This document shows positions 2,928 through 63,378 of a DNA stretch of 64,000 nucleotides, piece by piece. Below the pieces are notes generated by a model. It saw only the letters and a list, made by a program, of their open reading frames with translations. It ran no database searches and was not told the origin of the DNA. Source of the stretch: a virus (Duplodnaviria > Heunggongvirae > Uroviricota > Caudoviricetes); IMG/VR virus record IMGVR_UViG_3300031417_000379; one strand, given 5' to 3'. Every line of letters starts with the position of its first letter. Position 1 is the first letter of the stretch. Both the position numbers and the translations under genes were made by a program.

Positions 2928-3026
2928 GAGAGGCTTCTTCCTAAGCTTGAGGAATTGTGCGTGCGTAAGCTATAACGCTCTACAGCTCTACTTCATTCCG
3001 ATTCGTCTACGAATCTACAGCTAACA

Positions 3027-3068
3027 AGCTTCAAGGGACACCCGAATTAACGGGTATCCCTTGAAGCT
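3027..3068. terminator. imperfect 19-bp inverted repeat (1 mismatch) with 6-nt loop between two minus-strand genes
   Basis: aagcttcaagggacacccg-aattaa-cgggtatcccttgaagctt lies downstream of the 3119 stop and upstream of the 2927 start; no U-tract. Confidence 0.4.
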
Positions 3069-3118
3069 TTAGACTGCTAGGGGGTGGCGCTTTTTACAGC
3101 GTTCGCCTCTCATGCAGC

Positions 3119-3301
3119 CTACGGTTTAAGCCGATCACTCCGGTCGGAGCCGGAATGGTCAAACCCAGCCTTGTCATCAGCTCGTTCCGCTCGAGCCTCG
3201 TGAACCTCTGCCTCGGTATGCTCCTTAGCAGCCTCAGCCTTATTCTGTAGCCCTTCGGCCAAATCCGAAGCTTTTTCCTTGATGTCATCGAATCGGGACA
3301 T
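3119..3301 (-). CDS. small charged protein, CsbD-like (tentative)
   Basis: 60-aa ORF rich in K/E/A (KEKASDLAEGLQNKAEAAKE), resembling CsbD-type stress proteins; short, so low confidence. Confidence 0.4.
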   Translation of the reverse strand: MSRFDDIKEKASDLAEGLQNKAEAAKEHTEAEVHEARAERADDKAGFDHSGSDRSDRLKP

Positions 3302-3436
3302 GAATGCCTCCTTCTAACCTTGGATCGGGGCGGCCACCTTAGGCCGTCGTTGTTGGTAGCTAATATCAAGCGGAGTCGGTTGTTAGCCGCAGTTTCCATA
3401 AAGGAGCCTGAACTCTAGGTTTGAGTTTCCTGCTTC

Positions 3437-3769
3437 TTAGCAAGCCGGTCGTAGCTTGTCCACATCTTCTGGAGAGAGGTTTAGCAAGCGATACCAACGG
3501 TCACAGAAGGTCAGCTTCTCGAGCGCTTCGCGTTCTTTTCGGCGAGGCGCCTCCGGGAATCCGTTATATGAGCACCAAGCGTGCTCACCTGTGGCTCGAT
3601 CGCGGATATCAAGCCAAACGACTCCTCGATCCGAAGCTCGTGTTTTCTCTACTCGAAGCTGCACCACATCGATGCTTCTATTGAGCTTCCGGTTGACCTC
3701 GCCGATGAGGCCAACCGCGCTCTGTGCAAGTTGTTCTGGGGTTTTGTCCATGTCACCCTCCGTACTCAT
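3437..3769 (-). CDS. hypothetical protein
   Basis: 110-aa ORF on the operon strand; overlapping plus-strand ORFs judged spurious. Confidence 0.55.
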   Translation of the reverse strand: MSTEGDMDKTPEQLAQSAVGLIGEVNRKLNRSIDVVQLRVEKTRASDRGVVWLDIRDRATGEHAWCSYNGFPEAPRRKEREALEKLTFCDRWYRLLNLSPEDVDKLRPAC

Positions 3770-3808
3770 GCGGTATATCGCCTATGTGTAACACCGCCAG
3801 CAGTATTT

Positions 3809-4387
3809 CTAATCCTGCGAGTAAAGCATGGCTTCCACTTCGAGCTCCGTCAACGGCGCACGAAGACTAGCGGCGTCTTCTTTAGTAATGAGATCTTCAA
3901 CTAGCCAGGCGTCCACTGTTTTCTCAAGGGAGTCGATGAGCACCTGTAGATGCTTTAGAGGCTGTGTTGATGATTCTAAAAGCCCGTTGGCTATAGCCTC
4001 AGAGATAAGTCGGTGACTGTTTTCAAACGGCTGACGAAAACCTTTCTGCTTTCGGTCAAAGCTTCTCACTGCGGATTCGATGCGATACTTAAGCATACGA
4101 TTTCCGGAGAAACGAAGCTCAATAGTCTCGACTTGCTGCTCAAGCAGGCTAACGAAGAACGGCATTCGCTTTGAGGGGTCACCGATGGCCCAATCACGAG
4201 CTTCAGCTGCTGGAATGAGAGCTTGAAGATAGGCTTTAAAGCCTTCGATCTGTGACTCAGGCGAGTTAAGAGCGGGCCATTCCACTAGCTTCACCTCGCT
4301 TGGAAAGTCCTTGTAGCCGGTCATCGTGGTAGCCGTCTCGATAGAGCGATTGAGTCGCGCTAGCAGCTCTTCAGTAGTAACGATCAT
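3809..4387 (-). CDS. hypothetical protein
   Basis: 192-aa ORF, divergent from the plus-strand gene at 4457. Confidence 0.7.
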   Translation of the reverse strand: MIVTTEELLARLNRSIETATTMTGYKDFPSEVKLVEWPALNSPESQIEGFKAYLQALIPAAEARDWAIGDPSKRMPFFVSLLEQQVETIELRFSGNRMLKYRIESAVRSFDRKQKGFRQPFENSHRLISEAIANGLLESSTQPLKHLQVLIDSLEKTVDAWLVEDLITKEDAASLRAPLTELEVEAMLYSQD

Positions 4388-4411
4388 CGTAGGCCGCCTA
4401 ACTGTTAAAGC

Positions 4412-4432
4412 TCGATAGGATAGCTCTATCGA
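4412..4432. promoter_or_regulatory. inverted repeat tcgatag-N7-ctatcga (with a gatag direct repeat) in a 69-bp divergent promoter region
   Basis: Lies between divergently transcribed 3809..4387(-) and 4457..4960(+); aaaggag RBS 8 nt before the 4457 ATG; candidate operator for the adjacent wHTH-like protein. Confidence 0.35.
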
Positions 4433-4456
4433 CTTGAAGTCACAAAGGAGACTCCG

Positions 4457-4960
4457 ATGAAGACACCTCAGCTTGCATCCCAGAACGGTCGCCGAGCCTT
4501 TCGTGCCCGCCGTGGCGAAACCGCTCTAGCAGTACTTTCAGTGTTAGCGAGCGGGAAAGGTGCTCTTACTCCTGGAGGCATCGCAAAGCGCATCCGTGAT
4601 CTTTCTCGCGGTGAGTGGGCGGTCACCACATCGTCAGTGAACGCACAGCTTGACGATCTCCTTCGAAGCAAGCTGGTCTACAAGACCTATCGGGACGACC
4701 CGCTCACCGGTTCAGATTACTACTACAGCGTAGAGCAGTCCGGAGTCAACCGTCTTACGACTAGCAAAACAGCGCTCGACGCTCTCTGGTCTAACTTCAA
4801 GGAAAGCTCCTCGGACGGATCGCAGCTCGAGGTGGAGCTTGAGAAACTGCAGCAGGCGTTGACCGTTGTGGATAAGCTCCCTGACGATCGCCTCAACCGG
4901 ATCACAGCGGCGGTGGCTGACCTTCGCAAGACTATCTACACCGTCCTCGCCGAAGACTGA
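4457..4960 (+). CDS. putative winged-helix DNA-binding regulator
   Basis: 167-aa ORF with a good RBS; segment LASGKGALTPGGIAKRIRDLSRGEWAVTTSSVNAQLDDLLRSKLVY looks like a wHTH (MarR/PadR-like); one of only two plus-strand genes. Confidence 0.6.
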   Translation: MKTPQLASQNGRRAFRARRGETALAVLSVLASGKGALTPGGIAKRIRDLSRGEWAVTTSSVNAQLDDLLRSKLVYKTYRDDPLTGSDYYYSVEQSGVNRLTTSKTALDALWSNFKESSSDGSQLEVELEKLQQALTVVDKLPDDRLNRITAAVADLRKTIYTVLAED

Positions 4961-5011
4961 CTTACACTACTCCCCCTCGCTGCGCGAAACGGCGAGGGGG
5001 AGTAGTGTAAG
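4961..5011. terminator. bidirectional intrinsic terminator (perfect 20-bp stem, 11-nt loop)
   Basis: cttacactactccccctcgc-tgcgcgaaacg-gcgagggggagtagtgtaag exactly between convergent genes 4457..4960(+) and 5018..5641(-). Confidence 0.7.
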
Positions 5012-5017
5012 TACTAC

Positions 5018-5641
5018 TTAGTCAACACTAGTCACTAGTAAGGTAACCTCAAGGTTTACTAGCCCCTTGCGGAGAGCTGTAAGAGTAGCCTCTACCTCAC
5101 GCTCCTTGAGATTGTGATTCTCATAGTACTCGAAGGTGTCGATCAAGCGCTCACCATAGGCGATGTAGTTGTCTAGCCAGATCTCCGGTGGGTTTGGAGT
5201 AGTCAGAATCTTGAAAGCTTGAAATGAAAGCATCTCTTCCAGCAGTCGCCCGGAGCGGCAAGACTCCCCGTTAAAAGGGATTGGTTTTGTGACGCTTAAG
5301 AAACTTTCGACAGCCTTCATGACTGGAGTGTAGTGTTCCCAGCGTACCAACACACCTGGAAGTTCGGCGGCTAACTTTTCTTTCAGTGCTGCAGCATCGT
5401 GAATATCCAACGCGCTAATAGCGCAATCCTCTAGATCAGCAGCAAAGCTGGGAAGCGCTCTTAAGATCTCTATGATGCGATTCTCATCTTTGAACATCAC
5501 ATAAGGGTCTTGCTCCCAAAACTTCATGAGCTCTTGATTAGCTTCGGTGAGAGTATTGCGATGAGCAACAGTGGCCACCGGATGCTGCAGCGTGTAGTCG
5601 ATGAGATCCATCGTTTGGCGAGATCTGCTCTTGTACTTCAA
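5018..5641 (-). CDS. tandem-array protein A (~200-aa predicted all-helical, unknown function)
   Basis: Last of 12 consecutive similar-sized ORFs; its stop region overlaps the next gene's start (translational coupling). Confidence 0.8.
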   Translation of the reverse strand: MKYKSRSRQTMDLIDYTLQHPVATVAHRNTLTEANQELMKFWEQDPYVMFKDENRIIEILRALPSFAADLEDCAISALDIHDAAALKEKLAAELPGVLVRWEHYTPVMKAVESFLSVTKPIPFNGESCRSGRLLEEMLSFQAFKILTTPNPPEIWLDNYIAYGERLIDTFEYYENHNLKEREVEATLTALRKGLVNLEVTLLVTSVD

Positions 5642-6261
5642 ATTGAAAGCTCCACCCGCATGGCAATCTCGAACTTATCGAGGTAGCTAAGAGTTCTTGC
5701 AAGTTCTTCAGAATAGGCTTCAGGCCAATCTGCAGTTACGGCGGTCTTGAAAAGCTGGAACGACTCATCAAAGGCTTTCACTAACTTTTCACCGTCTTCG
5801 ATAGTTACGTTTTCCCCGTAGAGGAAGTCATAAATCTCATCGTAATGGCTCCAAAGTTGATCCGTTCCTTCTTCATCACCATCATCATCGAACAACGCTT
5901 GAAGCGCCATGGCTGCATCGAAAGCTAGGTCACGAAGAGCTGTGTGACTTCCGAAACGCTTGAGAACCTCGTCACGGCGTGTGCGTACGTAGGCTACATA
6001 CTTAGAGTACTCTTTAGCAAACTTCGGTTGCGCTTTAGCTCGTTCTTCATACTGGAGCATGAGGGGCTCGATAGTCTTTAGAGCCGGCTCGTACTTAGAC
6101 AACGGAGTATCAAAGAACACAACGCTATCCGCCGCCTGTTTGAGAGTTTGAAACTCGCTTAAGCTCTTGATGAAATCATCTGCGTTGTCCAATAGCTCGA
6201 AGAAGAGATACGATGCACTTTCTCCAGCTCTAAGTAGAGCTGCTGCGTACTGCATCTTCAT
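5638..6261 (-). CDS. tandem-array protein B (~200-aa helical, unknown function)
   Basis: 207 aa; 4-nt overlaps with both flanking array genes. Confidence 0.8.
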   Translation of the reverse strand: MKMQYAAALLRAGESASYLFFELLDNADDFIKSLSEFQTLKQAADSVVFFDTPLSKYEPALKTIEPLMLQYEERAKAQPKFAKEYSKYVAYVRTRRDEVLKRFGSHTALRDLAFDAAMALQALFDDDGDEEGTDQLWSHYDEIYDFLYGENVTIEDGEKLVKAFDESFQLFKTAVTADWPEAYSEELARTLSYLDKFEIAMRVELSI

Positions 6262-6860
6262 TACGATGTCACACCCTTAACTGTTTCGATTTCGGCTAGT
6301 ATGAGCAACGACTCAAGTCGATTGAGCATGTTGATCAGTTGATCGTAGTCCGAAGCCATTAGTGAGCGAGTCCGAGCTTCACTCTCTAGATAGCTCCGCG
6401 CGAGGTCTTCTCCACGCTCAACAAGAGCGTGTACCTTTGAGAGATCAAGTTCTCGTGATGAGAGCAAATCGCCGGCGAGCAAAAGCGTTTCGTTACGTCG
6501 ATTCTCCCCAGCCAGATAGCTCATCTGATAACGTCTACAAAAGGCTGTAAACTCATCGATCACATTACGAAGAGGATCAGGTCTTACTCTCAACATCACG
6601 ATAGAGAGTTGTGCTTCGAGTTCCTTCATCGCGCCGAGCGGGAAACGAGTGTTAAGTCTCTCGCGCACATCCTTCTGAAGAAGCTCGAGCAGACGGTCAC
6701 GCACCCGAGGTTCCATAAGCATGCTGTAGAACGCTCCAGGCGAAACAAAGCTTCTAACCTCTTCGCTAAGGTAATCGATCACAGCGTAGTAGCGGTCTTC
6801 GAGGATCTCTACTTCCTCGCCAAACGGCTTGTAGCTATTGACGATGCGATGACTCATCAA
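6261..6860 (-). CDS. tandem-array protein C
   Basis: 199 aa; coupled start/stop overlaps. Confidence 0.8.
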   Translation of the reverse strand: MMSHRIVNSYKPFGEEVEILEDRYYAVIDYLSEEVRSFVSPGAFYSMLMEPRVRDRLLELLQKDVRERLNTRFPLGAMKELEAQLSIVMLRVRPDPLRNVIDEFTAFCRRYQMSYLAGENRRNETLLLAGDLLSSRELDLSKVHALVERGEDLARSYLESEARTRSLMASDYDQLINMLNRLESLLILAEIETVKGVTS

Positions 6861-7486
6861 TTTACCTCTTCAAGTAAGTACAGCACACGAAGCCTGTCAA
6901 GCCGGCGTTCTGCAGAAGCTATACGCTCTGGAGATTTTGTAGCGTCACATTGCGTAAGGAAAGCTTCAATCAGCTGTGTAAGCTTATGCTCCTCATCCTC
7001 GTGAAGTCGAAGCTGACGCTGTACCCAAACAGAGTACTCTACGATGTCAGAAAAAGCGTTGGCAGCTCGAGCGCCGATAAACGCGCCATCCCCAGATGTC
7101 TGAAGAGGAAGAAGTTGGCGAAGCTCCGCCAGCGTTTCGGAAAGTTGTGTCTTGAACTGCACCATGTGCTCAAAGCGCGGAGTGAGCTCATTAATTTGAT
7201 CAGCGATGGATTTGTAGTGCTCTACAAGCTTTCTAGCCGCCAAGGGTACACCCTCACCGTAAAAGTCGATCCCCTGGCTCTCAATGAGCTGTCGTATAGT
7301 CGGTCTTACCTGGCCTAGAAGCTTGAGTACCGAGCTGTCTGTTACCTTAGTTCGAGCGTAGCTAAAGAGCTCGATGCTAAGTGACTCCGCCTTGCTAGCG
7401 TTCTGGCATTCCTGACTAAAGTTGTGGAGCTCTTGGCTTAGACTCTGCAGAGCGCTATAGCGAGAGTATGGATCCCTACGCATCAA
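6857..7486 (-). CDS. tandem-array protein D
   Basis: 209 aa; coupled. Confidence 0.8.
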   Translation of the reverse strand: MMRRDPYSRYSALQSLSQELHNFSQECQNASKAESLSIELFSYARTKVTDSSVLKLLGQVRPTIRQLIESQGIDFYGEGVPLAARKLVEHYKSIADQINELTPRFEHMVQFKTQLSETLAELRQLLPLQTSGDGAFIGARAANAFSDIVEYSVWVQRQLRLHEDEEHKLTQLIEAFLTQCDATKSPERIASAERRLDRLRVLYLLEEVN

Positions 7487-8096
7487 CTACCTCCAGTATC
7501 ATAAGTTGAGCTTCGATGTGATCGAAAGCTGAGTGGAAGGTTTCAAGCACCTGGCGATGTGATCCGTTGCCGTGGTTAGTCACGAGCTCATCCAGCTCGT
7601 TAATAGTCTCGAGAAGTCGTTCAAAGTGAATCTCGCTTGCCGTCCGGGCTCCCCAGATTGGAGTGAGTTCTCGTCGCATATCGCTGAAGATAACGTCAAG
7701 CCGATCACTAAAGACGTAGCTTGTAGGCGGAATCACGCCCGACCCGAGATTGGTCCAGAGCTGGTCCACCGCGTAGCCCAACGGGTCCTTAAGTAGAACG
7801 AGCGCTCCCCAGCGAGCCTCGATGAAATCAAACTCATCAAGAAGCTCGTGAACGCTCTCGACGAACTGAGCGTCCTCTTTGCGCTTGCGGCTTTGAGAAT
7901 AAAACTGAAGTGCTTCACGCAGCTGTTCAAAAGTCAGCAAGAAACTGTGAGCATCACCGATGTGGTTATACTTTCGGAGTGCCTCGAGCTCAACGCTGAG
8001 CTTTGGGACTGTGCTGCTCACAACAGCGTTCACCTCTACGAGGAACGTGTCCGTAGCCTTTTCACGGCTAAGTAAGCTCTTGCTATACCACTTCAC
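7476..8096 (-). CDS. tandem-array protein E
   Basis: 206 aa; 31-bp gap to the upstream member. Confidence 0.8.
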   Translation of the reverse strand: MKWYSKSLLSREKATDTFLVEVNAVVSSTVPKLSVELEALRKYNHIGDAHSFLLTFEQLREALQFYSQSRKRKEDAQFVESVHELLDEFDFIEARWGALVLLKDPLGYAVDQLWTNLGSGVIPPTSYVFSDRLDVIFSDMRRELTPIWGARTASEIHFERLLETINELDELVTNHGNGSHRQVLETFHSAFDHIEAQLMILEVVDA

Positions 8097-8127
8097 TTAT
8101 TCATAGTACGCCTGAGCTAGCCGTCTG

Positions 8128-8733
8128 TCAATAGAGCCCGACCATCATGGCCTCGACCTCGAGCTTCTGTATAGAGTCAAGATGTTCATCACGAAGACTT
8201 GTGTGGAGGGTCGGAGCTTGAACCTGATCGTGGATCGTGTAGTTCAAATTGATGAAGTCTCTTAAAAGTCCCTCGTCTATCTCGCGAGCTTTCAGAAGCT
8301 CAAGCGCGCAGTCCTCCAGATCTTCGTAAAGCGCACGTCTTTCCGGCGGAAGCGCCTCCGCAGTGCGGAGAAAATCAGCGCTTAGAGCTAGCATCGCCTG
8401 GCGTCCAGCTATTTCGATGTAAAGCTTAAGCTTCGGGTTGTAGTACCAGCGCGCTAATACGTCCTCGCACTGCTTTAGAATTGGGCGTGCTATCTTCGTG
8501 TACTCCTGCGCTCGCAGAGGTGAATCTTTTACCATGCGTCCGGAGTAAGAGGCTTCACGAGTGAACTGCTCGAACAGTTCTAGGAATTCACTGTGCTCGC
8601 TATCACTGTCGTTGAATAACTTGCCAGATTCAATGAGAAAGGTGTCAACTAGGGAGTATACTCTGGGCGGCATTGCTGTACGCTTAAGTTTCTGAGCCGC
8701 GGCCATAGCTGCGGTTGCTCGTGTTTGGATCAT
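8128..8733 (-). CDS. tandem-array protein F
   Basis: 201 aa; coupled. Confidence 0.8.
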   Translation of the reverse strand: MIQTRATAAMAAAQKLKRTAMPPRVYSLVDTFLIESGKLFNDSDSEHSEFLELFEQFTREASYSGRMVKDSPLRAQEYTKIARPILKQCEDVLARWYYNPKLKLYIEIAGRQAMLALSADFLRTAEALPPERRALYEDLEDCALELLKAREIDEGLLRDFINLNYTIHDQVQAPTLHTSLRDEHLDSIQKLEVEAMMVGLY

Positions 8734-9347
8734 GTTTGAGCTTCCTCTTGTTCAGCGTAGAGATCGGAAAGGACCGAAGCGACCTCAAAGTTTTCGAGCA
8801 GCTTATCAAGCTTTTTAGCTAAGTCCGACGGATAAATCGAGTCCTCAGCTTCATGCTTGATCGCGCGGAGAAGCACAAGCGTTCGCTCTGCTGAGACCCC
8901 AAGAGAGTCAGTTCGTAGACTCCAATAGGCGGTTGACTCGAAGTCTTGATGATAGACTGTGATAGCCTGTCTGCTCACTTGAAACTGTCTTAGCAGATCT
9001 TCGAGCGCCGTCACCACTGTTTCAACGGCCTGTCGGTACTCTGGGGGCTTACTCACTCGAGTGAGCAGCATTTCAAGCTGATCTCGGTATTCGTAAGCAG
9101 GGAAGTAGCTGTAGCTTTGGGCGTCCTCGAGCCACTCTCTATCGCTACTGAGAACAGCTATGAGATCGCGCATCATGGTGATGAGCTCAGCCTCTTTTTT
9201 GGGCAAGCTCGACTTATTCTCCCTGTAGCTTGAGAGTGCGCGCTTTGCTAAAAACTCGATATCGAGATGAGTAAAGGCCCGAGCGTCTCGAGAGATACTC
9301 GTCAACACGTTTGCCACTTCCTCGTCAAGACTCCTATAGTAGAGCAT
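8730..9347 (-). CDS. tandem-array protein G (start chosen at internal ATG 9345-9347 with gaggag RBS; longest ORF extends to 9440)
   Basis: The longest ORF would overlap upstream gene H by ~100 nt; the internal Met preceded by GAGGAG gives a 205-aa product and a 14-nt overlap. Confidence 0.7.
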   Translation of the reverse strand: MLYYRSLDEEVANVLTSISRDARAFTHLDIEFLAKRALSSYRENKSSLPKKEAELITMMRDLIAVLSSDREWLEDAQSYSYFPAYEYRDQLEMLLTRVSKPPEYRQAVETVVTALEDLLRQFQVSRQAITVYHQDFESTAYWSLRTDSLGVSAERTLVLLRAIKHEAEDSIYPSDLAKKLDKLLENFEVASVLSDLYAEQEEAQT

Positions 9348-9903
9348 CGATACTCTCCTCACGCTTACTAGCGTAAAACTCTGGATAGTAGCCAATTCTG
9401 GTGACGAGCTTTTGAGCTTCGATAATAGCTTTATAGACATTGAGGCTATTGATCTGAGAAAGACGATTCGAGTTAAATAGGTCCAATGTTAAGTAGTAAG
9501 TGGACGCGAACGCGCTCAGCAATTTTAGCTCATCCAGGTTAAGCGAAGAACTCCTCGTTTCAAGCTCCTCTACCACGGAATAAAGTAGGTTGAGCATCGC
9601 TTCAACTTCTTTGCGAACATCTTCTTGCTTTCCCCAGTAATTCCAGAGCTTGACAGCTTCATCAAAACGATCGCTAGCAATAGCCGAACCTTGTGGCTTG
9701 AGAGCTAGAGTCTTGAAGTGCTTCTTGAGCACCGCTAGATGCATCTGGATAAGCTCACTTTGAGCGATTGGATCGCTGCTGAGATAACCTTTCAGAACGG
9801 TTGCAGAGTAGTACGCATCGTTTGATAGCTCTTTGCTACCGTCGCCACAAATCACCTCATTTAAGAAGCGTAGAGTCAACGTCCTTCTATCGCGGTAGAT
9901 CAT
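9334..9903 (-). CDS. tandem-array protein H
   Basis: 189 aa; coupled to I. Confidence 0.75.
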   Translation of the reverse strand: MIYRDRRTLTLRFLNEVICGDGSKELSNDAYYSATVLKGYLSSDPIAQSELIQMHLAVLKKHFKTLALKPQGSAIASDRFDEAVKLWNYWGKQEDVRKEVEAMLNLLYSVVEELETRSSSLNLDELKLLSAFASTYYLTLDLFNSNRLSQINSLNVYKAIIEAQKLVTRIGYYPEFYASKREESIDALL

Positions 9904-10514
9904 AGGAGCGTCTCGAGAGTGATCGCTGTCTCAAAGTCCTCAATAGCCTCTTCAAGCGCATCCATTCGTGCGTTGGCTAACACGTCGTTGGGAAAGCTCT
10001 TGCACAATGCTACTACGTTCTCTTTGAATAGGCCTGCTAGCTCATAAGCAGCTTCTTCGTCAAGGCTCTCTGAAGCGTAGAATCGCTCGATGGCCGGTTG
10101 AAGAATGGCCTTACGCGGCTGAAACAGCTCGGCTGTTGCACTGCTTCTGTCGACTGTAGTTCTCGTGAGCTCCATAACTCTTTCAAGCTTGAGCTTGAGC
10201 TGCGGCCTGTGAACAAAACGAGCTACGGTTGCGTCAGTGTAAGGCACGATCCAGGATACGAAAAGCTCTAAGACTTGGCGCTTCATCGGTAAACGAACCG
10301 AACGAATTACCTGCTTAAGCGTCGGCTCAACATTCCTAAGTGTGGCTAAAAGAGGCGGATTACCCTTAGCTCTACCCTCGGTACTACTACAGTAGTAATG
10401 GAGCTCATTGCCGAGCTCAAGAAGCTTTGGGACTTTCTGATGACGCCCGATTGTCCGAAGCTGATCAGCAATCTCAATCGCAGAGTTATAGCGTGTCAGG
10501 TAAAACCTATCCAT
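9900..10514 (-). CDS. tandem-array protein I
   Basis: 204 aa; shares motif VPKLLELGNELHYY with J (LAKLSKLGGQLHGF) and K (LPKLLEVGSTLDAQY), supporting paralogy. Confidence 0.8.
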   Translation of the reverse strand: MDRFYLTRYNSAIEIADQLRTIGRHQKVPKLLELGNELHYYCSSTEGRAKGNPPLLATLRNVEPTLKQVIRSVRLPMKRQVLELFVSWIVPYTDATVARFVHRPQLKLKLERVMELTRTTVDRSSATAELFQPRKAILQPAIERFYASESLDEEAAYELAGLFKENVVALCKSFPNDVLANARMDALEEAIEDFETAITLETLL

Positions 10515-11103
10515 TGGTTACCTCGTGCATGAGCGTAAGTACCTCAAGTCGCTCAATACCAGCCTCAAGCTTCGGCTTGAGCTCGCGATTAGAGCCGGTG
10601 TCAGCGGCGAAAGCCTGCACCTCGCACGCAAGCTCCAGGAACTTGGAAAGAGCCTCGCCGGTGAGTGATTCTCCGCCAAGAATAGAGATAACGATGGCCT
10701 CTATAGCAACGTAGCTGTCTGATCGCTCCTGACTCCACTGGTAACCCAACTTGTAGAGACAATCCATGACCTCGCTCACAGCTGCCTTTGTCTGTGGCTC
10801 AACAGTGAGTCGATTGTAGAGCGATGTCACAGCAACTTCGGCTTCGTTGCGGTAAGCCTTGAGCCGTTCTCTCTTATCATCGTTACGCACGTGCCTAATG
10901 TGACCGTCGATCACCGGAAGAAGAGTTGGCAGTAGTTTGATGGCGCCCAACCGGTGCGGCTCACTAAGCTCACTCCGGTATGAAAATCCGTGGAGTTGGC
11001 CTCCGAGCTTTGAAAGCTTAGCAAGCCCAAGCCTTGAGCCGGTACGCTGAGCCGTGATTGCAAGATCCAACAGCTCTTTCACCGCCGGCATGTACTTGAT
11101 CAC
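10507..11103 (-). CDS. tandem-array protein J
   Basis: 198 aa; paralog motif as above. Confidence 0.8.
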   Translation of the reverse strand: MIKYMPAVKELLDLAITAQRTGSRLGLAKLSKLGGQLHGFSYRSELSEPHRLGAIKLLPTLLPVIDGHIRHVRNDDKRERLKAYRNEAEVAVTSLYNRLTVEPQTKAAVSEVMDCLYKLGYQWSQERSDSYVAIEAIVISILGGESLTGEALSKFLELACEVQAFAADTGSNRELKPKLEAGIERLEVLTLMHEVTNG

Positions 11104-11267
11104 TAAGGTCTCCTCTAAGCTTTTGCCGATCTTATCATGAGAAAGTTAGGTTGGCAATCGGTAACAAACGCTCTAGATGACAGTTTAAGCGTTTGTAAAG
11201 CTAGGATGACAGGTTGTACGGCTCTTCGCCAATCTACTGTTAGCGACTGATCTCGTCACTTAGAAGC
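11104..11267. promoter_or_regulatory. 164-bp intergenic region inside the array with a 9-bp inverted repeat and gatgacag direct repeats
   Basis: acaaacgct(11164-11172)/agcgtttgt(11188-11196) inverted repeat; gatgacag at 11176-11183 and 11205-11212; the only sizeable gap in the 12-gene array, so a candidate internal promoter/operator. Confidence 0.35.
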
Positions 11268-11915
11268 TTAATTATCTGTCACCGCGAAGTCGAGTTCAAT
11301 CTGAAGCTCTGCTTCTGCTAGAGCGACTTCCATTCGTGAGGCGGCTACAACGCTATCCTGCTCTATCTGAGCCACCATAAGCTCGCCTAGCTCAAAGAAA
11401 CGGCTGAGTGATTCGATTTTCAACTCTCTGCTATCTACCAAGGCAAAAGCTTCCTCGCGAAAAGCATTCTCCACTGCTACTCGAGCTGAACGTCGATGCT
11501 TTCGCCTGTCAACGTTCGCGTCGATGGCTCTGAGCGGCTTCAAAAGTATGGCTTTGCGCGTAAACTGCGAAGTAAAGCGTTCGTAGCTATCAGTAGCAAG
11601 CGGTTCGGCTAGTGCTCGAAGATTTAATAGCGTCTCTCTCGTTTCGTCCTTCTTGAGACGAGAGTACTGTGCGTCTAAAGTTGAACCTACTTCCAGAAGT
11701 TTAGGTAAGCTCTCAGGTTCAAGCTTTCCTTTCCAAAGCCGTTGGCTGTTTGGAAGACTGAAAGCCAATGACATGATACTGGAGAGCTTGTGTTTTACCC
11801 CGTAGTTGTAGAACAAAGCCCGGACTGTCTGCATTCTTACGTGAGCGTTCTCAAGCTCAATCTCCCGAGTGCTCCAAGGGAGTGCCTTGTAGAGCAACGA
11901 ACCCTCAATAGCCAC
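11268..11915 (-). CDS. tandem-array protein K
   Basis: 215 aa; paralog motif shared with I and J. Confidence 0.8.
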   Translation of the reverse strand: MAIEGSLLYKALPWSTREIELENAHVRMQTVRALFYNYGVKHKLSSIMSLAFSLPNSQRLWKGKLEPESLPKLLEVGSTLDAQYSRLKKDETRETLLNLRALAEPLATDSYERFTSQFTRKAILLKPLRAIDANVDRRKHRRSARVAVENAFREEAFALVDSRELKIESLSRFFELGELMVAQIEQDSVVAASRMEVALAEAELQIELDFAVTDN

Positions 11916-12572
11916 TTACAGAACCCCGGTCTGTCGCATAAGAAGAGCAACCTCAAGTTCGTCTTCAGCATCTTTCGGTAGAGCAACCTGCACGCCGAGT
12001 AACTGAAGCTTCGTAATGAGCGCTTCAGCAGCCTTGTGATACTTATCTAGAGTATTGAACGTCACAGTACGGGAGCTCATAACATTCGTAAGCTGGCCAA
12101 CAAGGTTGAACTCTTCAGTTTCAGTTTGCTTACGCTTTGAGAATGCTGCTCTAAGTTGCTCGTTGACACTGTGGTGCAGCTTTAACACCACTGTTTTGAT
12201 TTGTGTGTCACTACTAAGAATCTCAGTGAGGTCAGCAGCAAGTGGCAGCGCAACCGCCTCGAACTCCGCAAAGTCAGCCTTGCGTTCTTCTGAACGGAGT
12301 CGCTTTCTCTGAGCTTCAAGCTTCTGAGCTAGCTCTTTGAGTCCGAGGAATCGGTCACTGGTGTAGAAGTCTGAGCGAATCTTAAGCATGTTGGGAAGGC
12401 AGCGGCCTTGACGAAGCACTATAGATAACCCGCTTGCATGCCCGTAGTCTTGCAGTAGGTAAGTAAGTGTATCGAGCTTCTTATCGAAGGTCCAACCTGA
12501 AAAGTGCTTTGCAGATTTTAGGCGGCGGTAGTAGCTTTGATGTCTCAAAACTCGTCTCTGCGCGGCGTGCAT
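11916..12572 (-). CDS. tandem-array protein L (first member; ATGA overlap with the SNF2 helicase stop)
   Basis: 218 aa; start codon 12570-12572 overlaps the helicase TGA at 12572-12574. Confidence 0.8.
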   Translation of the reverse strand: MHAAQRRVLRHQSYYRRLKSAKHFSGWTFDKKLDTLTYLLQDYGHASGLSIVLRQGRCLPNMLKIRSDFYTSDRFLGLKELAQKLEAQRKRLRSEERKADFAEFEAVALPLAADLTEILSSDTQIKTVVLKLHHSVNEQLRAAFSKRKQTETEEFNLVGQLTNVMSSRTVTFNTLDKYHKAAEALITKLQLLGVQVALPKDAEDELEVALLMRQTGVL

Positions 12573-15409
12573 CAGACACCCCAGGCTCGTCGCTCAGCCT
12601 CGAAGAGAGAGCCCTGTTCGCCGGCAACAGCGTCGTCAAACGCGTGGAGGTCGCTCACGCCGGCGGTGGCGTCGAAGAGCTTCTGCTTCTCGTTCTGCAT
12701 CGCAACCCAGCGCTCATCGATGGTGTTCTTCCCTCGAAAACGCACAACGGTTACCGGCTTGGTCTGACCCATGCGATAAGCGCGGCGAATGGCCTGAGAC
12801 TCAAGTGAGGGCTTGGTCTGAGGCTCAAGGATAAGCACCAGTGAGGCCGCCTGGATGTTGAGCCCGGTGCCTCCCGCCTTGATCTGTGCGAGAAGAACGC
12901 CAGGCTTTTCAGCCTTAGTGAACGCATCCACCTGCTCCTGACGTTCGGATGAGCTCAGGTCGCCGGTGAGCGGGACGAACGGATCATCTTCCTTGAGCTC
13001 GTTCTGCAGGACGCTAATAGCCTCACGATAGAAGCTGAAGATCAGCACCTTGTTGTCGTTGGCCATTGCTTCGCTTACGAGCTCCTTGATACGCTGAACA
13101 GTACTCGACTTCGACCCCGCCAGAACCTTTGCTCGCCGAGCCATGTTCCAGTCACCGGCCTGAAGTGCGCGCTTATAGTATTCAGCGTCGGCTTCGGAAA
13201 GCTCGATGAACTCTTCGGTCTCAAGCAGCTCAGGAAGCTCCTGAAGTACATCTACCTGGTTGCGGCGCAGGTAGGCCGGGGCGATTGCCTTACGGAAAGC
13301 AGTGTAGATGGTCTTGTTCTTCGGCATCTTCAAGTGCGGCTGAACGTACGAAAGAAGCTGTTCGAACTCCTCAAGCTTGTTCTCGAGCGCCGTTCCGGTC
13401 ATGAGAAGTGCACGTTCGCCGGCCTTAACCCAAGGAATCACACCTCGAGTACGAAGAGTCTCCGGGTTCTTCAGATAATGCGCTTCGTCAACCACAGTGA
13501 GATCGGTACTGGTGATGGAGCTCACTAGATGATGAGCGTTTACCTTCTGGATACTCTCGAAGGTGGCTAGAGCAAGACCTCCGTTGGTAGCCCAGCTCTG
13601 GAGGTTATCCTCGAGCTCCTCACCGTAGAGCATGTGCGGTTCGAAGTCCGTGTGCTTGAGTACCTCACGACGCCAGTTCTCAAGCACGGCCAGCGGCACG
13701 ATGACAAGGAATCGGTTGTGATCAGTGTTCTGTAGGTGCTTGGCTAATCCAAGTGCGGTTACGGTCTTGCCGAGCCCCATCTCGTCACCGACAACAACTC
13801 GACGCTGGTGGAGTGCGTACTGAACAGCGAAGGTCTGGTACGAACGAAGCTGAGACTTCATACCTTCGGTCTCGAGTTCGATGTTTCGGATTGCTGCGGT
13901 GAGCTCAGGAGCCAGGAAGCCGGAGATCTGTTCGAGTGTAAGAGCGTTGAATCCGAGTGCGCTCAGCATGGTCTGGAACGTGGCAGGGTTCTCGCGGAAG
14001 TAGAGGCGAGCCTCGTCTACCGTAGGCTCAGCGTACTCCTCAGAAAGACGCTGCAGGCGGTCCGTGTCCGTGTAGGTGTCAAGCGAACCGATCAGGTGCT
14101 TCACCGCAGCCTCGTTACGAGCTACCAGGTGAAGCTGCTCAGGATCATCCTGAAGAAGCTTTGCGAGAGCTTCAAACTGAGTCTTCGAAGGGTGTGGGCG
14201 AAGCTGGTCGAGCTGCAGCTTGTAGCTCTTACGGAGGAATTCCTCAAAGTAAGAGTCCTTATCCGTGAGTCGCGGATAGCCTCGAAGAAGCTTCTGATCA
14301 CGAGCGTAGGTTCTCATGAGCTGCACACCGAAGTTCAACGACTGACCCTCGAAGAGCCGCTCAGCCTTATCGGCAAGACGAAGCACGGCACCGACCGTCG
14401 GAGTCTGATCGCTCGCATCCATGTGAGTTTTTGCGAGGTCGTTGAAGCGATTCTCGAGGAGTCGTCGCGGGAAGCCCTGTCCCTTAGTGTGCTTAGCAAA
14501 AGCCTCCAGCGAGAGTGAGTTCAGGTGGTCACGTAGACGGCGAGTAGTGAGCTTATCGAGCTCTTCACGAAGATCTTCGTTAAGCTGAGCCTGACGCTCA
14601 AAGCTCTTCTGGATCACTACGATTGCAGCCTGGACAGCCTGCATCTTCTCCACGTCGAGAGTCACCACCACCGAGCCGGTGGGGAAGTCCTTAAGTGACT
14701 CAAGCTTTGTGACAGCCTGAAGCCAGTCGCTCAGCTCCGGTAGACGACGCCCAGCCGAAAGGCTAGCGCGAGAATCCATGAGCCCGGCGATGACGTGGAG
14801 GTTACGGTCTCCGGGGTTCGTGGCGGAGAGAAGTAGCTGTGCGGAGCTTCGAAGGTTGACCTGACGCTCATCCTTAGCGACCGGCCACCAGCGCCAGCGC
14901 AGGTACTGCTCAGTGGGCGGAATGAGCTCTTTAAGGTTCTTTAGATCCTGAACGAAGGCTTCTGCGTTCGGCACTCCCCAGAGATCGTGAGCCAGGAGGA
15001 ACCCACCGATGGCTCGCTGAGTGATCTTATTCACCGGGATAGCCACGATGGAGATCTCGCCGTCACGCTGGAACACAGAAATTGCGTTGGAGAAGTCACC
15101 CTTAGTGGAGGAAAGCTCTTTACCAGCATCGTTGAGCAGTTCGTTGACGCTCTCTACGGCCTCGATGGCCACGCGGAGCTTCTTACGGTCTTCGCCGTCG
15201 AGCGCGAGTTTCTCATCCCCGGTGTAGTTCACACGCGGGAAGAACGAAGAATCCTGAGTAGGAGTCCAGTCGTTGAGGAAGCTAAAGTCAGGGCTGTCAG
15301 TCACCGTCTGGAGAAGATCGGTGATCGCGGTGACGCCTCGCGTGTTGATCGCCATGAGCCTACTTTCTTGAACGTTTGTGGAGCGACCCGCTCTTGGGAG
15401 TCGGCTCAA
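12572..15409 (-). CDS. SNF2/RAD54-family helicase with ~500-aa N-terminal extension of unknown function
   Basis: Motif I GDEMGLGKT, motif II DEAHYLKN, motif III LLMTGTALEN, helicase-C GGTGLN and QAIRRAYRMGQ all present in the C-terminal half. Confidence 0.9.
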   Translation of the reverse strand: MSRLPRAGRSTNVQESRLMAINTRGVTAITDLLQTVTDSPDFSFLNDWTPTQDSSFFPRVNYTGDEKLALDGEDRKKLRVAIEAVESVNELLNDAGKELSSTKGDFSNAISVFQRDGEISIVAIPVNKITQRAIGGFLLAHDLWGVPNAEAFVQDLKNLKELIPPTEQYLRWRWWPVAKDERQVNLRSSAQLLLSATNPGDRNLHVIAGLMDSRASLSAGRRLPELSDWLQAVTKLESLKDFPTGSVVVTLDVEKMQAVQAAIVVIQKSFERQAQLNEDLREELDKLTTRRLRDHLNSLSLEAFAKHTKGQGFPRRLLENRFNDLAKTHMDASDQTPTVGAVLRLADKAERLFEGQSLNFGVQLMRTYARDQKLLRGYPRLTDKDSYFEEFLRKSYKLQLDQLRPHPSKTQFEALAKLLQDDPEQLHLVARNEAAVKHLIGSLDTYTDTDRLQRLSEEYAEPTVDEARLYFRENPATFQTMLSALGFNALTLEQISGFLAPELTAAIRNIELETEGMKSQLRSYQTFAVQYALHQRRVVVGDEMGLGKTVTALGLAKHLQNTDHNRFLVIVPLAVLENWRREVLKHTDFEPHMLYGEELEDNLQSWATNGGLALATFESIQKVNAHHLVSSITSTDLTVVDEAHYLKNPETLRTRGVIPWVKAGERALLMTGTALENKLEEFEQLLSYVQPHLKMPKNKTIYTAFRKAIAPAYLRRNQVDVLQELPELLETEEFIELSEADAEYYKRALQAGDWNMARRAKVLAGSKSSTVQRIKELVSEAMANDNKVLIFSFYREAISVLQNELKEDDPFVPLTGDLSSSERQEQVDAFTKAEKPGVLLAQIKAGGTGLNIQAASLVLILEPQTKPSLESQAIRRAYRMGQTKPVTVVRFRGKNTIDERWVAMQNEKQKLFDATAGVSDLHAFDDAVAGEQGSLFEAERRAWGV

Positions 15410-15418
15410 TCTCTTACA

Positions 15419-15460
15419 CTAACGGGCCAGACTCGGTTTGTCAACCGGCTGGCCCGTTAG
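15419..15460. terminator. 12-bp perfect inverted repeat (ctaacgggccag/ctggcccgttag), 18-nt loop
   Basis: Between the BI-1 family gene stop (15471) and the SNF2 helicase start (15409). Confidence 0.45.
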
Positions 15461-15470
15461 CTTTCACTCA

Positions 15471-16139
15471 TCAGCGAAAGATACTGAGGATCCTTAGCAG
15501 ACTCATGAAGATGTTCCAGATGTCCAGGAAGATGTTCAAAGCGAAGACACCGGGGTGGATGTCAGTGCCGTACTTATCCGCGTTCTTCAGGCTCTGGATA
15601 TCCATCACACTGTAGATCGAGAAGATTACGAGCGAACCGATAGCGATGAGCACCTGCAGGGCTCCGAGGTGGAACACGAAGGCGTTGAGAAGCGAGATAA
15701 CGATGACGCCCAGGAGGATAAAGAACATCGGCTTATACCAGCCGGAGAGGTCCTTCTTAGTGGTCCAACCCCAGATCGCCATGCTGCCGAAGACCACCAC
15801 TGTGCCGGCAGCGGCCATCACGATGAGATCTCCCATCCCGGACTGAACGTAGTAGTTCAATGCCGGATATGAGACAGCGCCGACGATGGCTGGGATTGCG
15901 ATGGCCAGCGGACCGGCCAGATACTTAGCCGCCTTACGGACAAACGCGGAGAGCAAGAGCAATCCGAGAGCCACGAAGTAGAGCGGCATGATGAGCGTCG
16001 GAGGGATAAAAGGTCCAATGAGCAGGATGCCGAGAAGCGCCGCTGCGAAGCCACCGGCGAGCCAGGTCATCACCTGCCCAAAGAAGCGAGGTTCAGTACC
16101 TCGCGAGGTGCGAGACGGCTTCAGATCAGTAAAAGTCAC
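15471..16139 (-). CDS. Bax-inhibitor-1/YccA-family membrane protein
   Basis: ~7 predicted TM helices and C-terminal ALNIFLDIWNIFMSLLRILSIF matching the conserved C-terminus of the BI-1/YccA family (..LYLDF.N.FL.LLRIL..). Confidence 0.75.
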   Translation of the reverse strand: MTFTDLKPSRTSRGTEPRFFGQVMTWLAGGFAAALLGILLIGPFIPPTLIMPLYFVALGLLLLSAFVRKAAKYLAGPLAIAIPAIVGAVSYPALNYYVQSGMGDLIVMAAAGTVVVFGSMAIWGWTTKKDLSGWYKPMFFILLGVIVISLLNAFVFHLGALQVLIAIGSLVIFSIYSVMDIQSLKNADKYGTDIHPGVFALNIFLDIWNIFMSLLRILSIFR

Positions 16140-16171
16140 TGCTATTACTCCTTAGTTGAGTAGTAGGAATA

Positions 16172-16792
16172 TCACGCTAGCGGACGTGTCACCGGAAGCT
16201 CAGCAGTTTCGCCAAGCTCCATCATAGCATCGGTAGTCATAACGCTTCCCACGATGATCGGGATCTTCCGGTAAGGTCGAAGCCCAGTGAGCGCAAGTAG
16301 CTGACTAGCGAAGCTACGAGCATCATACATGCGGATCATCTCTGGTTCAATTTCGTCGTCATCAAGGACATCAAACGTGGTGGTCTGCTCAGCCACGTGG
16401 CCTAAGGACTCCGCAACACGAACTACCACATCGAGAATCTCAGGATGAGTAGCTGCTTGAAGAAGAGTCACCATGTCAGCCATGGAGGTTTCTACCAGCT
16501 CCTCCTTCTTAGAAGCCTCGTCAAGAAGCTTAAGAATCTGTGGAGTGATAACGCTCTCCAGAGCCTTACGCGACTCCTTCTTGCGAAGAGCGTGAAGCTC
16601 CCAATCGAGCTTTGTCTCGCAGTACCAGAGGTGGTTCCCCGAAGCCTTTACAATGGTGCCGTCGTCAAGCTCGATCTCCCACATGCTTTCGGGCGTGTGG
16701 ATGTCATGAACTCGAGTAACCTCTACCGGCTGACCATCCGAGCCAAGAACCCAATCGCCGGGCTCTACATCGCCAAAGTTCTTTACAGTCAT
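16172..16792 (-). CDS. hypothetical protein
   Basis: 206-aa ORF; N-terminal GDWVLGSDGQPVEVTRVHDI..IELDDGTIVKASGNHLWY has a faint Hint/beta-strand-rich look but no catalytic Cys/Ser. Confidence 0.65.
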   Translation of the reverse strand: MTVKNFGDVEPGDWVLGSDGQPVEVTRVHDIHTPESMWEIELDDGTIVKASGNHLWYCETKLDWELHALRKKESRKALESVITPQILKLLDEASKKEELVETSMADMVTLLQAATHPEILDVVVRVAESLGHVAEQTTTFDVLDDDEIEPEMIRMYDARSFASQLLALTGLRPYRKIPIIVGSVMTTDAMMELGETAELPVTRPLA

Positions 16793-17697
16793 GGTCGTTG
16801 CTCCTCTAACGCTTCGAGATAGGCATCCCAGTCAGCATCCTGTTTCTCAAGCGCCGCCTGTCGCTCTATCACCCATTGTTCCTTTTCAGCACGCACCGGT
16901 GCCATGCGACGAAGCGCATCTGGCTTGGTGATGTCCCAAACCACACCGATACGGATAGAACCAAAATCTCGATCGTGCACCGGCACCTTGTAGAACGCCT
17001 CAGCAAGCTTTTGATTAGCGTCCCCGACGAAGATAGCCGACTCTGCAGCTTTCACGACACCTACAGAAAGATCAGATGCTTCTTTCGTGGCTAGAATCGG
17101 ATATATCCGTTCCTTATGAGCGTTAGTGAAGAACTCTTCTAACTCATCTAATAAAGCTTGACTTGAGTGAAGCTCTTGCAGCGCATCGGCATCGAGCTTC
17201 AAAAACATGAGAAGGCCAGTGCGTCTTTTTGGGCCGTAAGGTGTATCGGAGTAAGCTGCTCGTACTTCGTCACGGAAAACGTTGAGGTCACGTAGTAGTC
17301 CGGTGAGCGAAGGTGGGACTCGATAGACAAAGTCTCTTGAGAGCTTTGTGAGCTCTACAGCAAGTTCCCGCTGTGTAGCACCGAAGTCGTAGAACACGAC
17401 CTGCCCGTGGTCTTTGAATCCGGTTTCTTCCATGCTTCGACGTTTTGGCCTTGCAGCTGCCTTACGAAGTTTCGGCTCCCTGTACTGCTGGGTCGAGAGT
17501 TTCACTGCCCGCTTGAGCCGATTGAGAAGCTGATCTTCTTGGTCGCCGTAAGCGTATAGCCCGTTGGTGAAGTACGAAGCAGCCCAGTAAACAACGGCCG
17601 GGCTTCTTCCCCACCAGAAGTAGATAGTCTCGGGGCTAGAGTAACGCTGGAGCAGAGTAACGTCAAAGCCTAATGCTTTCTCGGTAACTCTATCCAT
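16789..17697 (-). CDS. hypothetical protein
   Basis: 302-aa ORF, 4-nt overlap with downstream gene. Confidence 0.75.
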   Translation of the reverse strand: MDRVTEKALGFDVTLLQRYSSPETIYFWWGRSPAVVYWAASYFTNGLYAYGDQEDQLLNRLKRAVKLSTQQYREPKLRKAAARPKRRSMEETGFKDHGQVVFYDFGATQRELAVELTKLSRDFVYRVPPSLTGLLRDLNVFRDEVRAAYSDTPYGPKRRTGLLMFLKLDADALQELHSSQALLDELEEFFTNAHKERIYPILATKEASDLSVGVVKAAESAIFVGDANQKLAEAFYKVPVHDRDFGSIRIGVVWDITKPDALRRMAPVRAEKEQWVIERQAALEKQDADWDAYLEALEEQRP

Positions 17698-33117: not shown

Positions 33118-33723
33118 TTAGTTCCTGTTGACGAGAGCGGAGTCGTTAAGGTTAACCTCGGTTGTGGTAGTGACACGCGTGGTCATTACGCCGTCGAGGC
33201 CCCCGCCGGCCTTAACATTAGCGTTACCGGCAGCACGTAGGAGTGTGAGACCGGAGCCAGGAACACCGGCGTACTTCCACTGAACATCACAGAACGCCTG
33301 CTGTCCGATGAAGTTTGACTTGCTCGGGCCACAAGTGACCTTAGTAATAGTCACATTAGTAAGCCCAGCAGAAGTGCTAAGGTTAGCCATAAGCTGGCAC
33401 TCGATGGCGGTGTTCTTCGTCATCGGGTTACCACTAATCTGAACGTTCGGGTTATTCACTAGCCCCGAACATGGATTAACAGCTGAACCGTAAGCCTTCT
33501 CAAGTTTAGTCTCTTGAGTGTTCGTACCGTTACCACCGAAGATAGAAACGGTACGAACAGCATCACGAGTTGAGCTTAAGATTACGTTGCGGTTCATAAA
33601 GAAGATCGAAGTATCGACAATCGTAATGAGAATTGCAACAATGAGCGGGATGACAATGATGGTAGACACCAGGGTAGAGTCACCCCGGTCACGCATTCTG
33701 CGCTTGAGTTTGGAAAACAGCAT
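33118..33723 (-). CDS. TadE-like protein (paralog of the preceding gene)
   Basis: N-terminus MRDRGDSTLVSTIIVIPLIVAILITIV matches the same pattern. Confidence 0.55.
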   Translation of the reverse strand: MLFSKLKRRMRDRGDSTLVSTIIVIPLIVAILITIVDTSIFFMNRNVILSSTRDAVRTVSIFGGNGTNTQETKLEKAYGSAVNPCSGLVNNPNVQISGNPMTKNTAIECQLMANLSTSAGLTNVTITKVTCGPSKSNFIGQQAFCDVQWKYAGVPGSGLTLLRAAGNANVKAGGGLDGVMTTRVTTTTEVNLNDSALVNRN

Positions 33724-63305: not shown

Positions 63306-63378
63306 GGTGCCCCCAGTCAGGATCGAACTGACTCAGTTGGGTTTAGAATCCACCGCTCTACCATTGAGCTATAGGGGC
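63306..63378 (-). tRNA. tRNA gene; anticodon CUA (amber-reading) if the canonical 7-nt loop is used; anticodon stem has two mismatches
   Basis: Reverse complement folds with a perfect 7-bp acceptor stem (one G-U), 4-bp D stem with GG loop, 5-bp T stem with TTCGATC loop, U33 and A37; anticodon stem only 3 WC pairs flanked by G-A and A-C; 3' CC encoded. Confidence 0.55.

Follow-up and report, generated by a model that had tools for sequence, protein, structure and literature searches.

Within the 64,000-nucleotide stretch of DNA analysed here (the window; IMG/VR record IMGVR_UViG_3300031417_000379, classed there among the Caudoviricetes), a gene for an SNF2-family helicase is directly followed by 12 consecutive open reading frames (ORFs) on the same, minus, strand at 5018-12572, each encoding 189-218 amino acids (aa), and most of these form a single family of extremely diverged paralogues. 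On the evidence of exhaustive sequence searches the family is new and confined to one clade of giant (0.7-0.8 Mb) elements. Its copy number differs between close relatives within that clade, and its proteins change faster than those encoded by the flanking genes while still under purifying selection. We tentatively favour, with more doubt than confidence, the reading that the array is a lineage-specific family of binding proteins diversified by duplication to handle variable factors of the host or of a recipient cell.

The array genes are lettered A to L, with the helicase-proximal gene as A. From the helicase outward the junctions are -1, 0, +164, -8, -4, -14, -4, +31, -11, -4, -1 and -4 nucleotides (nt; negative values are overlaps); nine of the 11 within-array junctions overlap or abut, and the gaps are two, one of 164 nt between B and C (11104-11267) and one of 31 nt between G and H (8097-8127). 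The original prediction had described 12 minus-strand ORFs of uniform size after the helicase, the same two gaps and a one-base overlap with the helicase stop; ORF coordinates and sizes were reproduced on recomputation and the junctions agree exactly. The G+C content of the array region, 0.49-0.51, is slightly below the 0.52-0.56 of its surroundings.

The relatedness of the 12 proteins is not apparent from pairwise comparison. Identity between paralogues is 10-25%, and BLASTP among them links just A with B (E 7.5e-9) and C with D (1e-3). Iterative hidden Markov model (HMM) searches were made in a local set of 578 ORFs, including the same locus from relatives collected via the helicase, and whether seeded on A, B, C or D they recruited the same 21 proteins each time: A, B, C, D, G and I, orthologues in the relative designated L005, seven genes of L001, three genes of L006, and nothing besides. 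The family signature comprises an N-terminal Y-G, an R-W/F in mid-protein, a near-invariant K seven residues after the R-W/F, and a C-terminal L-E-V..L. The motif that had earlier been noticed in three members, which are B, C and D in the present lettering, is real and is part of this full-length signature.

On this evidence A, B, C, D, G and I are firmly homologous, and for the others profile comparison was needed. Singly, by hhalign against the family profile, L scored 84%, H 80%, F 47%, K 45%, J 2% and E 0.4%. A profile was also built independently from F, H, J, K, L and the orthologues of these five; it aligned collinearly with the family profile over 150 columns at 94% probability and E 1.2e-7, while all 18 control alignments, made from 12 other window proteins of about 200 aa, one reversed and five shuffled alignments, scored 0.42% or less. 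When an HMM of the C-terminal motif, built from core members alone, was run against the 578 ORFs, its top non-core matches were L, F and a gene beyond the array termed dn1, each located 4-12 residues from the C-terminus. The best of these was dn1, with its match 4 residues from the end, and because the motif model ranks it among the best non-core matches dn1 is a probable 13th member. The earlier suggestion of a diverged paralogue family is thereby upheld for six members firmly and for F, H, K and L, whose membership is supported at group level, while that of E and J is unproven. Comparison of HMM with HMM joins most members to one another, and no member matches a known family.

The core members are A (11916-12572; 218 aa, basic with an isoelectric point (pI) of 9.6; its ATG shares 1 nt with the helicase TGA, and the L005 orthologue is 55% identical), B (11268-11915; 215 aa, abutting A with a gap of 0 and linked to it by BLASTP), C (10507-11103; 198 aa, matching D by hhalign at 95%), D (9900-10514; 204 aa), G (8128-8733; 201 aa, with an identical protein, P0045, on a contig of 740,336 bp) and I (6857-7486; 209 aa). 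Those placed at group level are F (8730-9347), H (7476-8096), K (5638-6261) and L (5018-5641), all like the core members on the minus strand. For F the longest possible ORF (236 aa) overshoots by 31 codons, and alignment with the L005 and P0059 proteins gives the start at 9347 and a product of 205 aa, which is linked to the family both through the joint profile and through its C-terminal motif. H has 206 aa from a GTG at 8094-8096 and, at 80% alone, shares in the 94% of the group, as does K (207 aa, pI 4.5; 45% alone), which is present in the relative L090 and has no orthologue in L005. L, the last array gene, has 207 aa, or 197 aa if it starts, as it may, at the ATG at 5611, and its C-terminal motif match lies 4 residues from the end. 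Of the two unproven genes, also minus-strand, E (9334-9903; 189 aa) has an L005 orthologue with the C-terminus ...YLEVSIDDFL, and J (6261-6860; 199 aa) shows by eye a mid-protein R-V and a C-terminal LNRLESLLIL, its hhalign match to the family (2-6%) being collinear over the C-terminal third.

Beyond L comes a PadR-like winged-helix regulator on the plus strand (4457-4960; 167 aa), convergent with the array. Its own match to Pfam PadR is weak, at 18 bits below the cut-off, but its orthologues in relatives carry PF03551 matches and it is 80% identical to the L005 orthologue. On the far side of this gene and back on the minus strand is dn1 (3809-4387; 192 aa), with a collinear hhalign match of 47% and the C-terminal sequence ...LTELEVEAML...

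Helicase and array occur together in relatives, with varying copy number. In the window there are 12 array genes plus dn1, and in L090, with a helicase about 100% identical, there are 12. L005 (helicase 95% identical) has 11, K being the one missing. On the 828-kb L001 contig (68%) there are seven, counted as five intact, one split into 152 and 67 aa, and one beyond an RF-1-like gene; L006 (71%) has two plus one. L003 and L007 (60% and 59%) have none, and PadR follows the helicase directly. In L008, L009, L012, L015, L016 and L017 (46-54% for full-length helicases; the L017 sequence is partial, covering the C-terminal part, and 67% identical) the position is taken by one unrelated membrane-like gene. 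A gene of about 220 aa, 'Y', which in distant relatives overlaps the stop codon of the helicase gene, was considered as a conserved partner and set aside; it is unrelated (hhalign 0.1-0.6%), membrane-like and normally evolving.

A neighbour-joining tree recovers lineage-specific duplicates, A with B, C with D (and I), and genes 1 and 2 of L001, with bootstrap values of 60-100%, and pairs the three L006 genes with three of those in L001. Since the tree shows both these duplicates and the L006/L001 pairing, it suggests an ancestral set of about three copies followed by independent expansions. The split member of L001 lies at 14256-14917, where the 152-aa ORF can be aligned with the N-terminal half of the family proteins but departs from them thereafter, and this member is likely a frameshifted pseudogene. 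Short RF-1-domain genes are found in or beside the arrays of relatives, at 16325-16729 in L001 and 12168-12650 in L006.

The array proteins also change quickly. Between the window and L005 they are 43-71% identical, with nonsynonymous divergence (dN) of 0.20-0.55, versus 91-98% (dN 0.007-0.048) for flanking proteins; dn1, at 86%, evolves more slowly than the array. Because synonymous sites are saturated with respect to L005, where the proportion of synonymous differences (pS) is also higher in the array, rates were taken from L090, which is 98.3% identical. In that comparison pS is 0.052 for the array versus 0.058 for the flanks, and the nonsynonymous proportion (pN) is 0.0080 versus 0.0024, or 3.3-fold higher; pN/pS is accordingly 0.15 versus 0.04, a difference of about 4-fold (Fisher p 4.6e-6). 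As the array ratio is well below 1 but above that of the flanks, the genes are functional and constrained, yet less so than their neighbours. Divergence from L005 exceeds what the L090 ratio would lead one to expect, which would fit older allelic lineages or cassette exchange. Metagenomes add several alleles of G, 61-71% identical, and of L, 50-83% identical. Hydrophobic positions are more conserved than the remainder, 61% versus 50%. The earlier view of the locus as a rapidly evolving one in a mobile element is borne out, both by protein change that outpaces the flanks and by the varying copy number.

Structure prediction with AlphaFold gave for B an all-helical model with eight main helices, a predicted local distance difference test (pLDDT) value of 88.5 and a predicted template modelling score (pTM) of 0.81. 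For E the pLDDT is 70.9 and the helix boundaries are those of B after an offset of about 20 aa, and so the helical character foreseen from the sequence holds for both models. The C-terminal motif of B is modelled, at pLDDT above 90, as part of a helix that packs well. The array proteins are soluble, with pI values from 4.5 to 9.6. Their alignment has no conserved pattern of His, Asp, Cys or Ser, the single near-invariant residue being one lysine, and on sequence grounds we infer that they are non-enzymatic helical proteins whose role is binding.

The original prediction did not recognize the family, and neither sequence nor fold searches match it to a known one. There is no relative of the array proteins in Pfam, PHROG, PADLOC or the PDB, and Foldseek against the PDB and BFVD returned nothing below E 0.38. 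Such fold matches as there are involve generic four-helix bundles alone, with half of the protein covered at 5-8% identity. Those with Avd of diversity-generating retroelements (DGRs; 4dwl/8ub7), XCC0516 (2gsc), talin rod domains and ROP reflect a very common up-down bundle fold that is uninformative about function; no reverse transcriptase domain or other DGR part is present among the approximately 50 window proteins scanned against Pfam, no search aimed at DGR parts having been made. When 1.84 billion representative proteins were searched exhaustively with hmmsearch, 13 matches came back at E<=1e-3, all of them array genes of this clade, and word-indexed searches with the family alignments found five and seven proteins, again clade members only.

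The organization of the locus reads as three expression units, helicase-A-B, C-G and H-L, judging from putative signals in its gaps. The gap between B and C has a sigma-70-like promoter at 11129-11157 on the minus strand (TTGCCA, 17 nt, TG-TAAGAT), followed by an AGGAG ribosome-binding site and then C; in L005 the hexamers of this promoter are preserved along with several blocks of gap sequence, adjoining coding DNA being about 59% identical. The promoter in the gap between G and H, at 8103-8131 on the same strand (TTGACA, 17 nt, TACTAT), ends 6 nt before the GTG of H, for which reason the H transcript may be leaderless. Both of its hexamers and their spacing are identical in L005 and L090, with flanking proteins just 52-71% identical in one relative. 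Because these promoters are of sigma-70 type, C-G and H-L should be transcribable by the host RNA polymerase. At the other end, the 57-nt gap between the stops of L and the convergent PadR-like gene holds a 21-bp inverted repeat free of mismatches, its loop 11 nt long (4960-5012), and L005 has at the equivalent site a 16-bp hairpin of different sequence, as a working terminator would lead one to expect; the hairpin is probably a bidirectional terminator that closes the array. A Shine-Dalgarno-like GAGG for the next gene lies inside the last Glu-Val or Glu-Leu codons of C, F, H, I and K, and part of the C-terminal conservation may therefore reflect dual coding and ribosome-binding constraint. 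An Rfam search over 3000-17000 gave no match.

Translation of the helicase itself (12572-15355, minus strand) most probably begins from the ATG at 15355, which gives 927 aa, and not from the TTG at 15409 that opens a 945-codon ORF, because the 927-aa start is shared with all 32 homologues. These are full-length at 914-949 aa, the L005 orthologue being 95% identical. Sequence places it as an SNF2-family ATPase with both lobes and the Walker A and DExH motifs present: the core, residues about 487-900, matches Pfam SNF2-rel_dom (PF00176) at 101 bits and Helicase_C (PF00271) at 61 bits, its D-E-x-G-L-G-K-T and D-E-A-H motifs do not vary among 23 homologues, and it matches SNF2 remodellers in the PDB at E 1e-50 over the core only. 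Helicase cores 40-44% identical to it are encoded in chromosomes across the Actinomycetota, and helicases on human-gut contigs of 585-706 kb are about 40% identical to it. The N-terminal approximately 480 aa are highly conserved in the clade, with many residues invariant in the 23 homologues, and residues 1-480 have no counterpart in Pfam, the PDB or isolate genomes.

The prediction that the array is coupled to this ATPase finds no support in the form given. The window shares the 1-nt stop-start overlap between the helicase gene and A with L005, L090 and L001 (in L006 there is an 8-nt gap), and co-translation is possible for A and B alone, with C-G and H-L behind their own conserved promoters. 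In sister clades, whose helicases are 46-60% identical, an unrelated membrane-like gene or PadR stands at the array position. Because of the three units, and because relatives keep the helicase without the family, the association is judged from the sequence to be positional and not functional.

Conjugation genes of a Gram-positive-type set lie 13-29 kb from the array on the same strand. Pfam and NCBIfam scans placed there a CHAP/lysozyme hydrolase (25055-26428), a VirB6/TrbL-like mobilome membrane protein of 1411 aa (26435-30670), a TadE-like protein (33118-33723), a NikA-like protein (33796-34665), a TcpF/VirB4-like ATPase (35602-37005) and a VirD4/TraD-like type IV coupling protein (39103-41679), all minus-strand. 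No virion gene (capsid, portal, terminase or tail) was found in the window, and there were no relatives among IMG/VR and GenBank phages. Since the window has genes for a type IV secretion system (T4SS) and no phage structural genes, it looks like part of a giant conjugation-type element with actinobacterial affinities; relatives are on contigs of 475-885 kb, with lengths of 828, 683 and 609 kb among them, and the 740,336-bp contig that encodes P0045 (ENA ERZ27247408 k141_1142885) is taken as the element's own. Matches to PHROG RIIA, terminase, tape measure, primase and PhoH had pointed to a huge phage, a reading that was rejected, the matches being to generic ATPase or transglycosylase domains: the 'terminase' is the P-loop of the T4SS coupling protein, and the 'tape measure' is a transglycosylase domain.

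Other cargo on the minus strand includes a Bax1-I/YccA-type membrane protein gene directly upstream of the helicase (15471-16139) and genes for a sigma-70-family factor (20627-21547), a GmrSD_C-domain nuclease-like protein (34771-35598) and an 823-aa GHKL-ATPase protein (48438-50909) that is the one PHROGs label RIIA. ORFs of at least 150 aa are almost all on the minus strand across the 64 kb, and the majority have no family assignment. A tRNA with anticodon CUA, of amber suppressor type, is at 63306-63378 on the minus strand and is labelled tRNA-Pyl by ARAGORN.

How the array may have come about, and what it may do, can be sketched as follows. Inside one clade of giant elements, tandem duplication would have taken about three ancestral copies beside the helicase to seven in one lineage and 12-13 in another, with one relative losing a copy (K, in L005) and another left with a split one (L001). 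The proteins would serve as inhibitors, decoys or adaptors directed at variable factors of host or recipient, such as those of defence or other barriers to establishment, and duplication with divergence would broaden the range of targets. The paralogy, the copy-number turnover, the faster evolution under purifying selection, the operon anatomy, the helical fold and the lack of a catalytic signature are features of the locus itself; binding, what is bound, and the host as the selective agent are what we infer from them.

The original prediction had raised a host-interaction or anti-defence locus of this kind, and several observations weigh against the array having this role. In general libraries the proteins resemble no known anti-defence, defence, immunity or effector protein in sequence or fold. 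A larger profile still leaves E (1.2%) and J (5.7%) outside the family. The gene-wide pN/pS of 0.15 is no direct signal of positive selection, and weak constraint could explain the faster evolution. A hypervariable sub-domain or surface patch was sought and rejected, orthologue identity staying level, within 0.48-0.58, in every octile of the protein. There are no direct DNA repeats of more than 24 nt in 3700-15500 and no near-identical copies, so there has been no recent amplification. Neither an origin of transfer (oriT) nor a relaxase was identified, which leaves the array without placement in a leading region, the stretch within about 30 ORFs of oriT on the side transferred first, with its genes on the T-strand. 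Nor does the B-C gap contain a hairpin of the kind found in Frpo-like single-strand promoters: the z score of the single-stranded DNA fold is -1.7 for the window and -1.1 for L005, and the structures differ.

Other explanations account for some of the same features. The family could be a weakly constrained one of minor or redundant role, shaped by relaxed selection and birth-and-death drift with no arms race. The pN/pS of 0.15, just about 4-fold above the flanks, agrees with this, as do divergence spread evenly along the protein, the absence of recent duplicates, the split copy in L001 and the missing K in L005. It sits poorly with 12 ORFs that are all intact and syntenic despite saturated synonymous sites, with the conserved promoters and terminator and preserved hydrophobic core, and with independent expansion in two lineages, and we regard it as unlikely. 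The possibility, raised in the original prediction, that the proteins are subunits of one assembly, in this case a hetero-oligomeric scaffold, structural or regulatory complex whose equal dosage is set by start/stop overlaps, derives some appeal from the uniform gene size, from the overlap or abutment at nine of 11 junctions and from the common C-terminal helix motif, which could mediate association. A copy number of 0, 3, 7, 11 or 12-13 amid conserved neighbours disfavours it, and orthologues that are 43-71% identical where the flanks are 91-98% identical, along with division among three transcription units, add to making it distinctly unlikely. We consider it just as improbable that the paralogues are accessory or specificity subunits that dock on the N-terminal half of the helicase, each bringing it to a different substrate. 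The 1-nt overlap kept in four of the loci and a region of about 480 aa without known function could be read that way, but sister clades without the family have the helicase as a core gene, it changes slowly (95% identical) while the array changes, 10 of the 12 genes are behind separate promoters, and L006 has an 8-nt gap in place of the overlap.

Two further proposals give weight to particular neighbours of the array. The presence of VirB6-, VirD4-, TcpF/VirB4- and NikA-like genes and a CHAP-hydrolase gene on the array strand no more than about 30 kb away, and of a conserved motif at the extreme C-terminus of nearly all members, brings to mind export of the array proteins into the recipient by the T4SS with the glutamate-rich, hydrophobic C-terminus as signal. 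Substrates of such systems generally have C-terminal signals. The motif, however, is predicted to be in a well-packed helix (pLDDT above 90) and not in a flexible tail, it is not a known secretion signal, and some of the E-V enrichment at the C-terminus also serves as Shine-Dalgarno-like GAGG for the next gene; export, which could be a special case of host interaction, is quite improbable. Slightly more of a long shot is its elaborated form, in which the T4SS injects the array proteins into recipients with the C-terminal helix motif as signal and each paralogue neutralises a different barrier. Least credible of all, and very improbable indeed, is that the element encodes a defence system built around the helicase, with the paralogues as its sensors. 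In PADLOC the helicase core matches DpdE at 371 bits and DrmD at 324 bits. It was, however, the sole match in a scan of 10 neighbouring genes that yielded no DISARM, Dpd, Zorya or BREX partner, against the NCBIfam models it falls far short of the cut-off both for DrmD (58 bits, with 950 required) and for ZorD, the core is 40-44% identical to chromosomal helicases of Actinomycetota, and sister clades retain the helicase in the absence of the array. A DISARM or Dpd assignment for the helicase was rejected for want of partner genes. The likeness to DpdE, DrmD and the actinobacterial SNF2 helicases is one of ATPase cores, the N-terminal half here being clade-specific, and it concerns the helicase and not the array.

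Tandem multigene families are already known as a kind of locus in large mobile genomes; what is new is the family itself. The MGF360/505 families of African swine fever virus (ASFV) and the Bcl-2-like and ankyrin families of poxviruses are multigene families associated with the term 'genomic accordion'. Like the array they consist of similar-sized helical proteins whose mutual similarity is nearly erased and which evolve faster than core genes. Among the traits of accordion-type families, homologous neighbours and variable copy number at the locus are present here, and recent near-identical copies are absent. Accordion-like expansion has been noted in reviews (PMC13359090, PMC13282480), and arrays of more than 30 similar genes occur in jumbo phages (PMC13282480). 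The ASFV and poxvirus families and the jumbo-phage arrays share with the present locus tandem diverged paralogues in a large mobile genome and a copy number that varies between close relatives. Unlike the viral multigene families, it is accompanied by conjugation genes and by no detectable virion genes; at 10-25% identity its paralogues are of old standing, and none has been amplified recently.

On plasmids, anti-defence genes are found grouped in the leading region (Samuel et al. 2024, PMC11541004). The array resembles the anti-defence islands of conjugative plasmids, and anti-CRISPR operons, in having small, uncharacterised, fast-evolving genes in one direction, on a T4SS element, with an adjoining winged-helix (helix-turn-helix, HTH) regulator. 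It differs from them in showing no homology to known anti-defence genes, in having a regulator that is convergent and not co-transcribed, and in lacking an Frpo-like promoter; further, known islands hold unrelated genes whereas the array is one paralogue family. Amplification of counter-defence genes is known from phages, both for T4 tifA (PMC9391042) and in a SegB-driven form (PMC13096335). It has in common with the array a gain in copy number at a locus for small proteins as a means of adaptation, but the phage amplifications are recent and near-identical, and the array copies are ancient and individually maintained.

For the present the value of the locus is that of a lead and not of a finding that changes views. 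With 0, 3, 7, 11 and 12-13 copies between conserved flanks, it is a natural series for following the birth and divergence of a gene family. Were injection through the T4SS to prove correct, the array would be a diversified repertoire of 'establishment effectors' of a 0.7-Mb conjugative element, for which, as a paralogue family, there is no known precedent. If the favoured reading is true, about a dozen new helical binder scaffolds would be at hand, and if the family does counter barriers in host or recipient, it would be a bacterial-element counterpart of the host-range multigene families of large eukaryotic DNA viruses.

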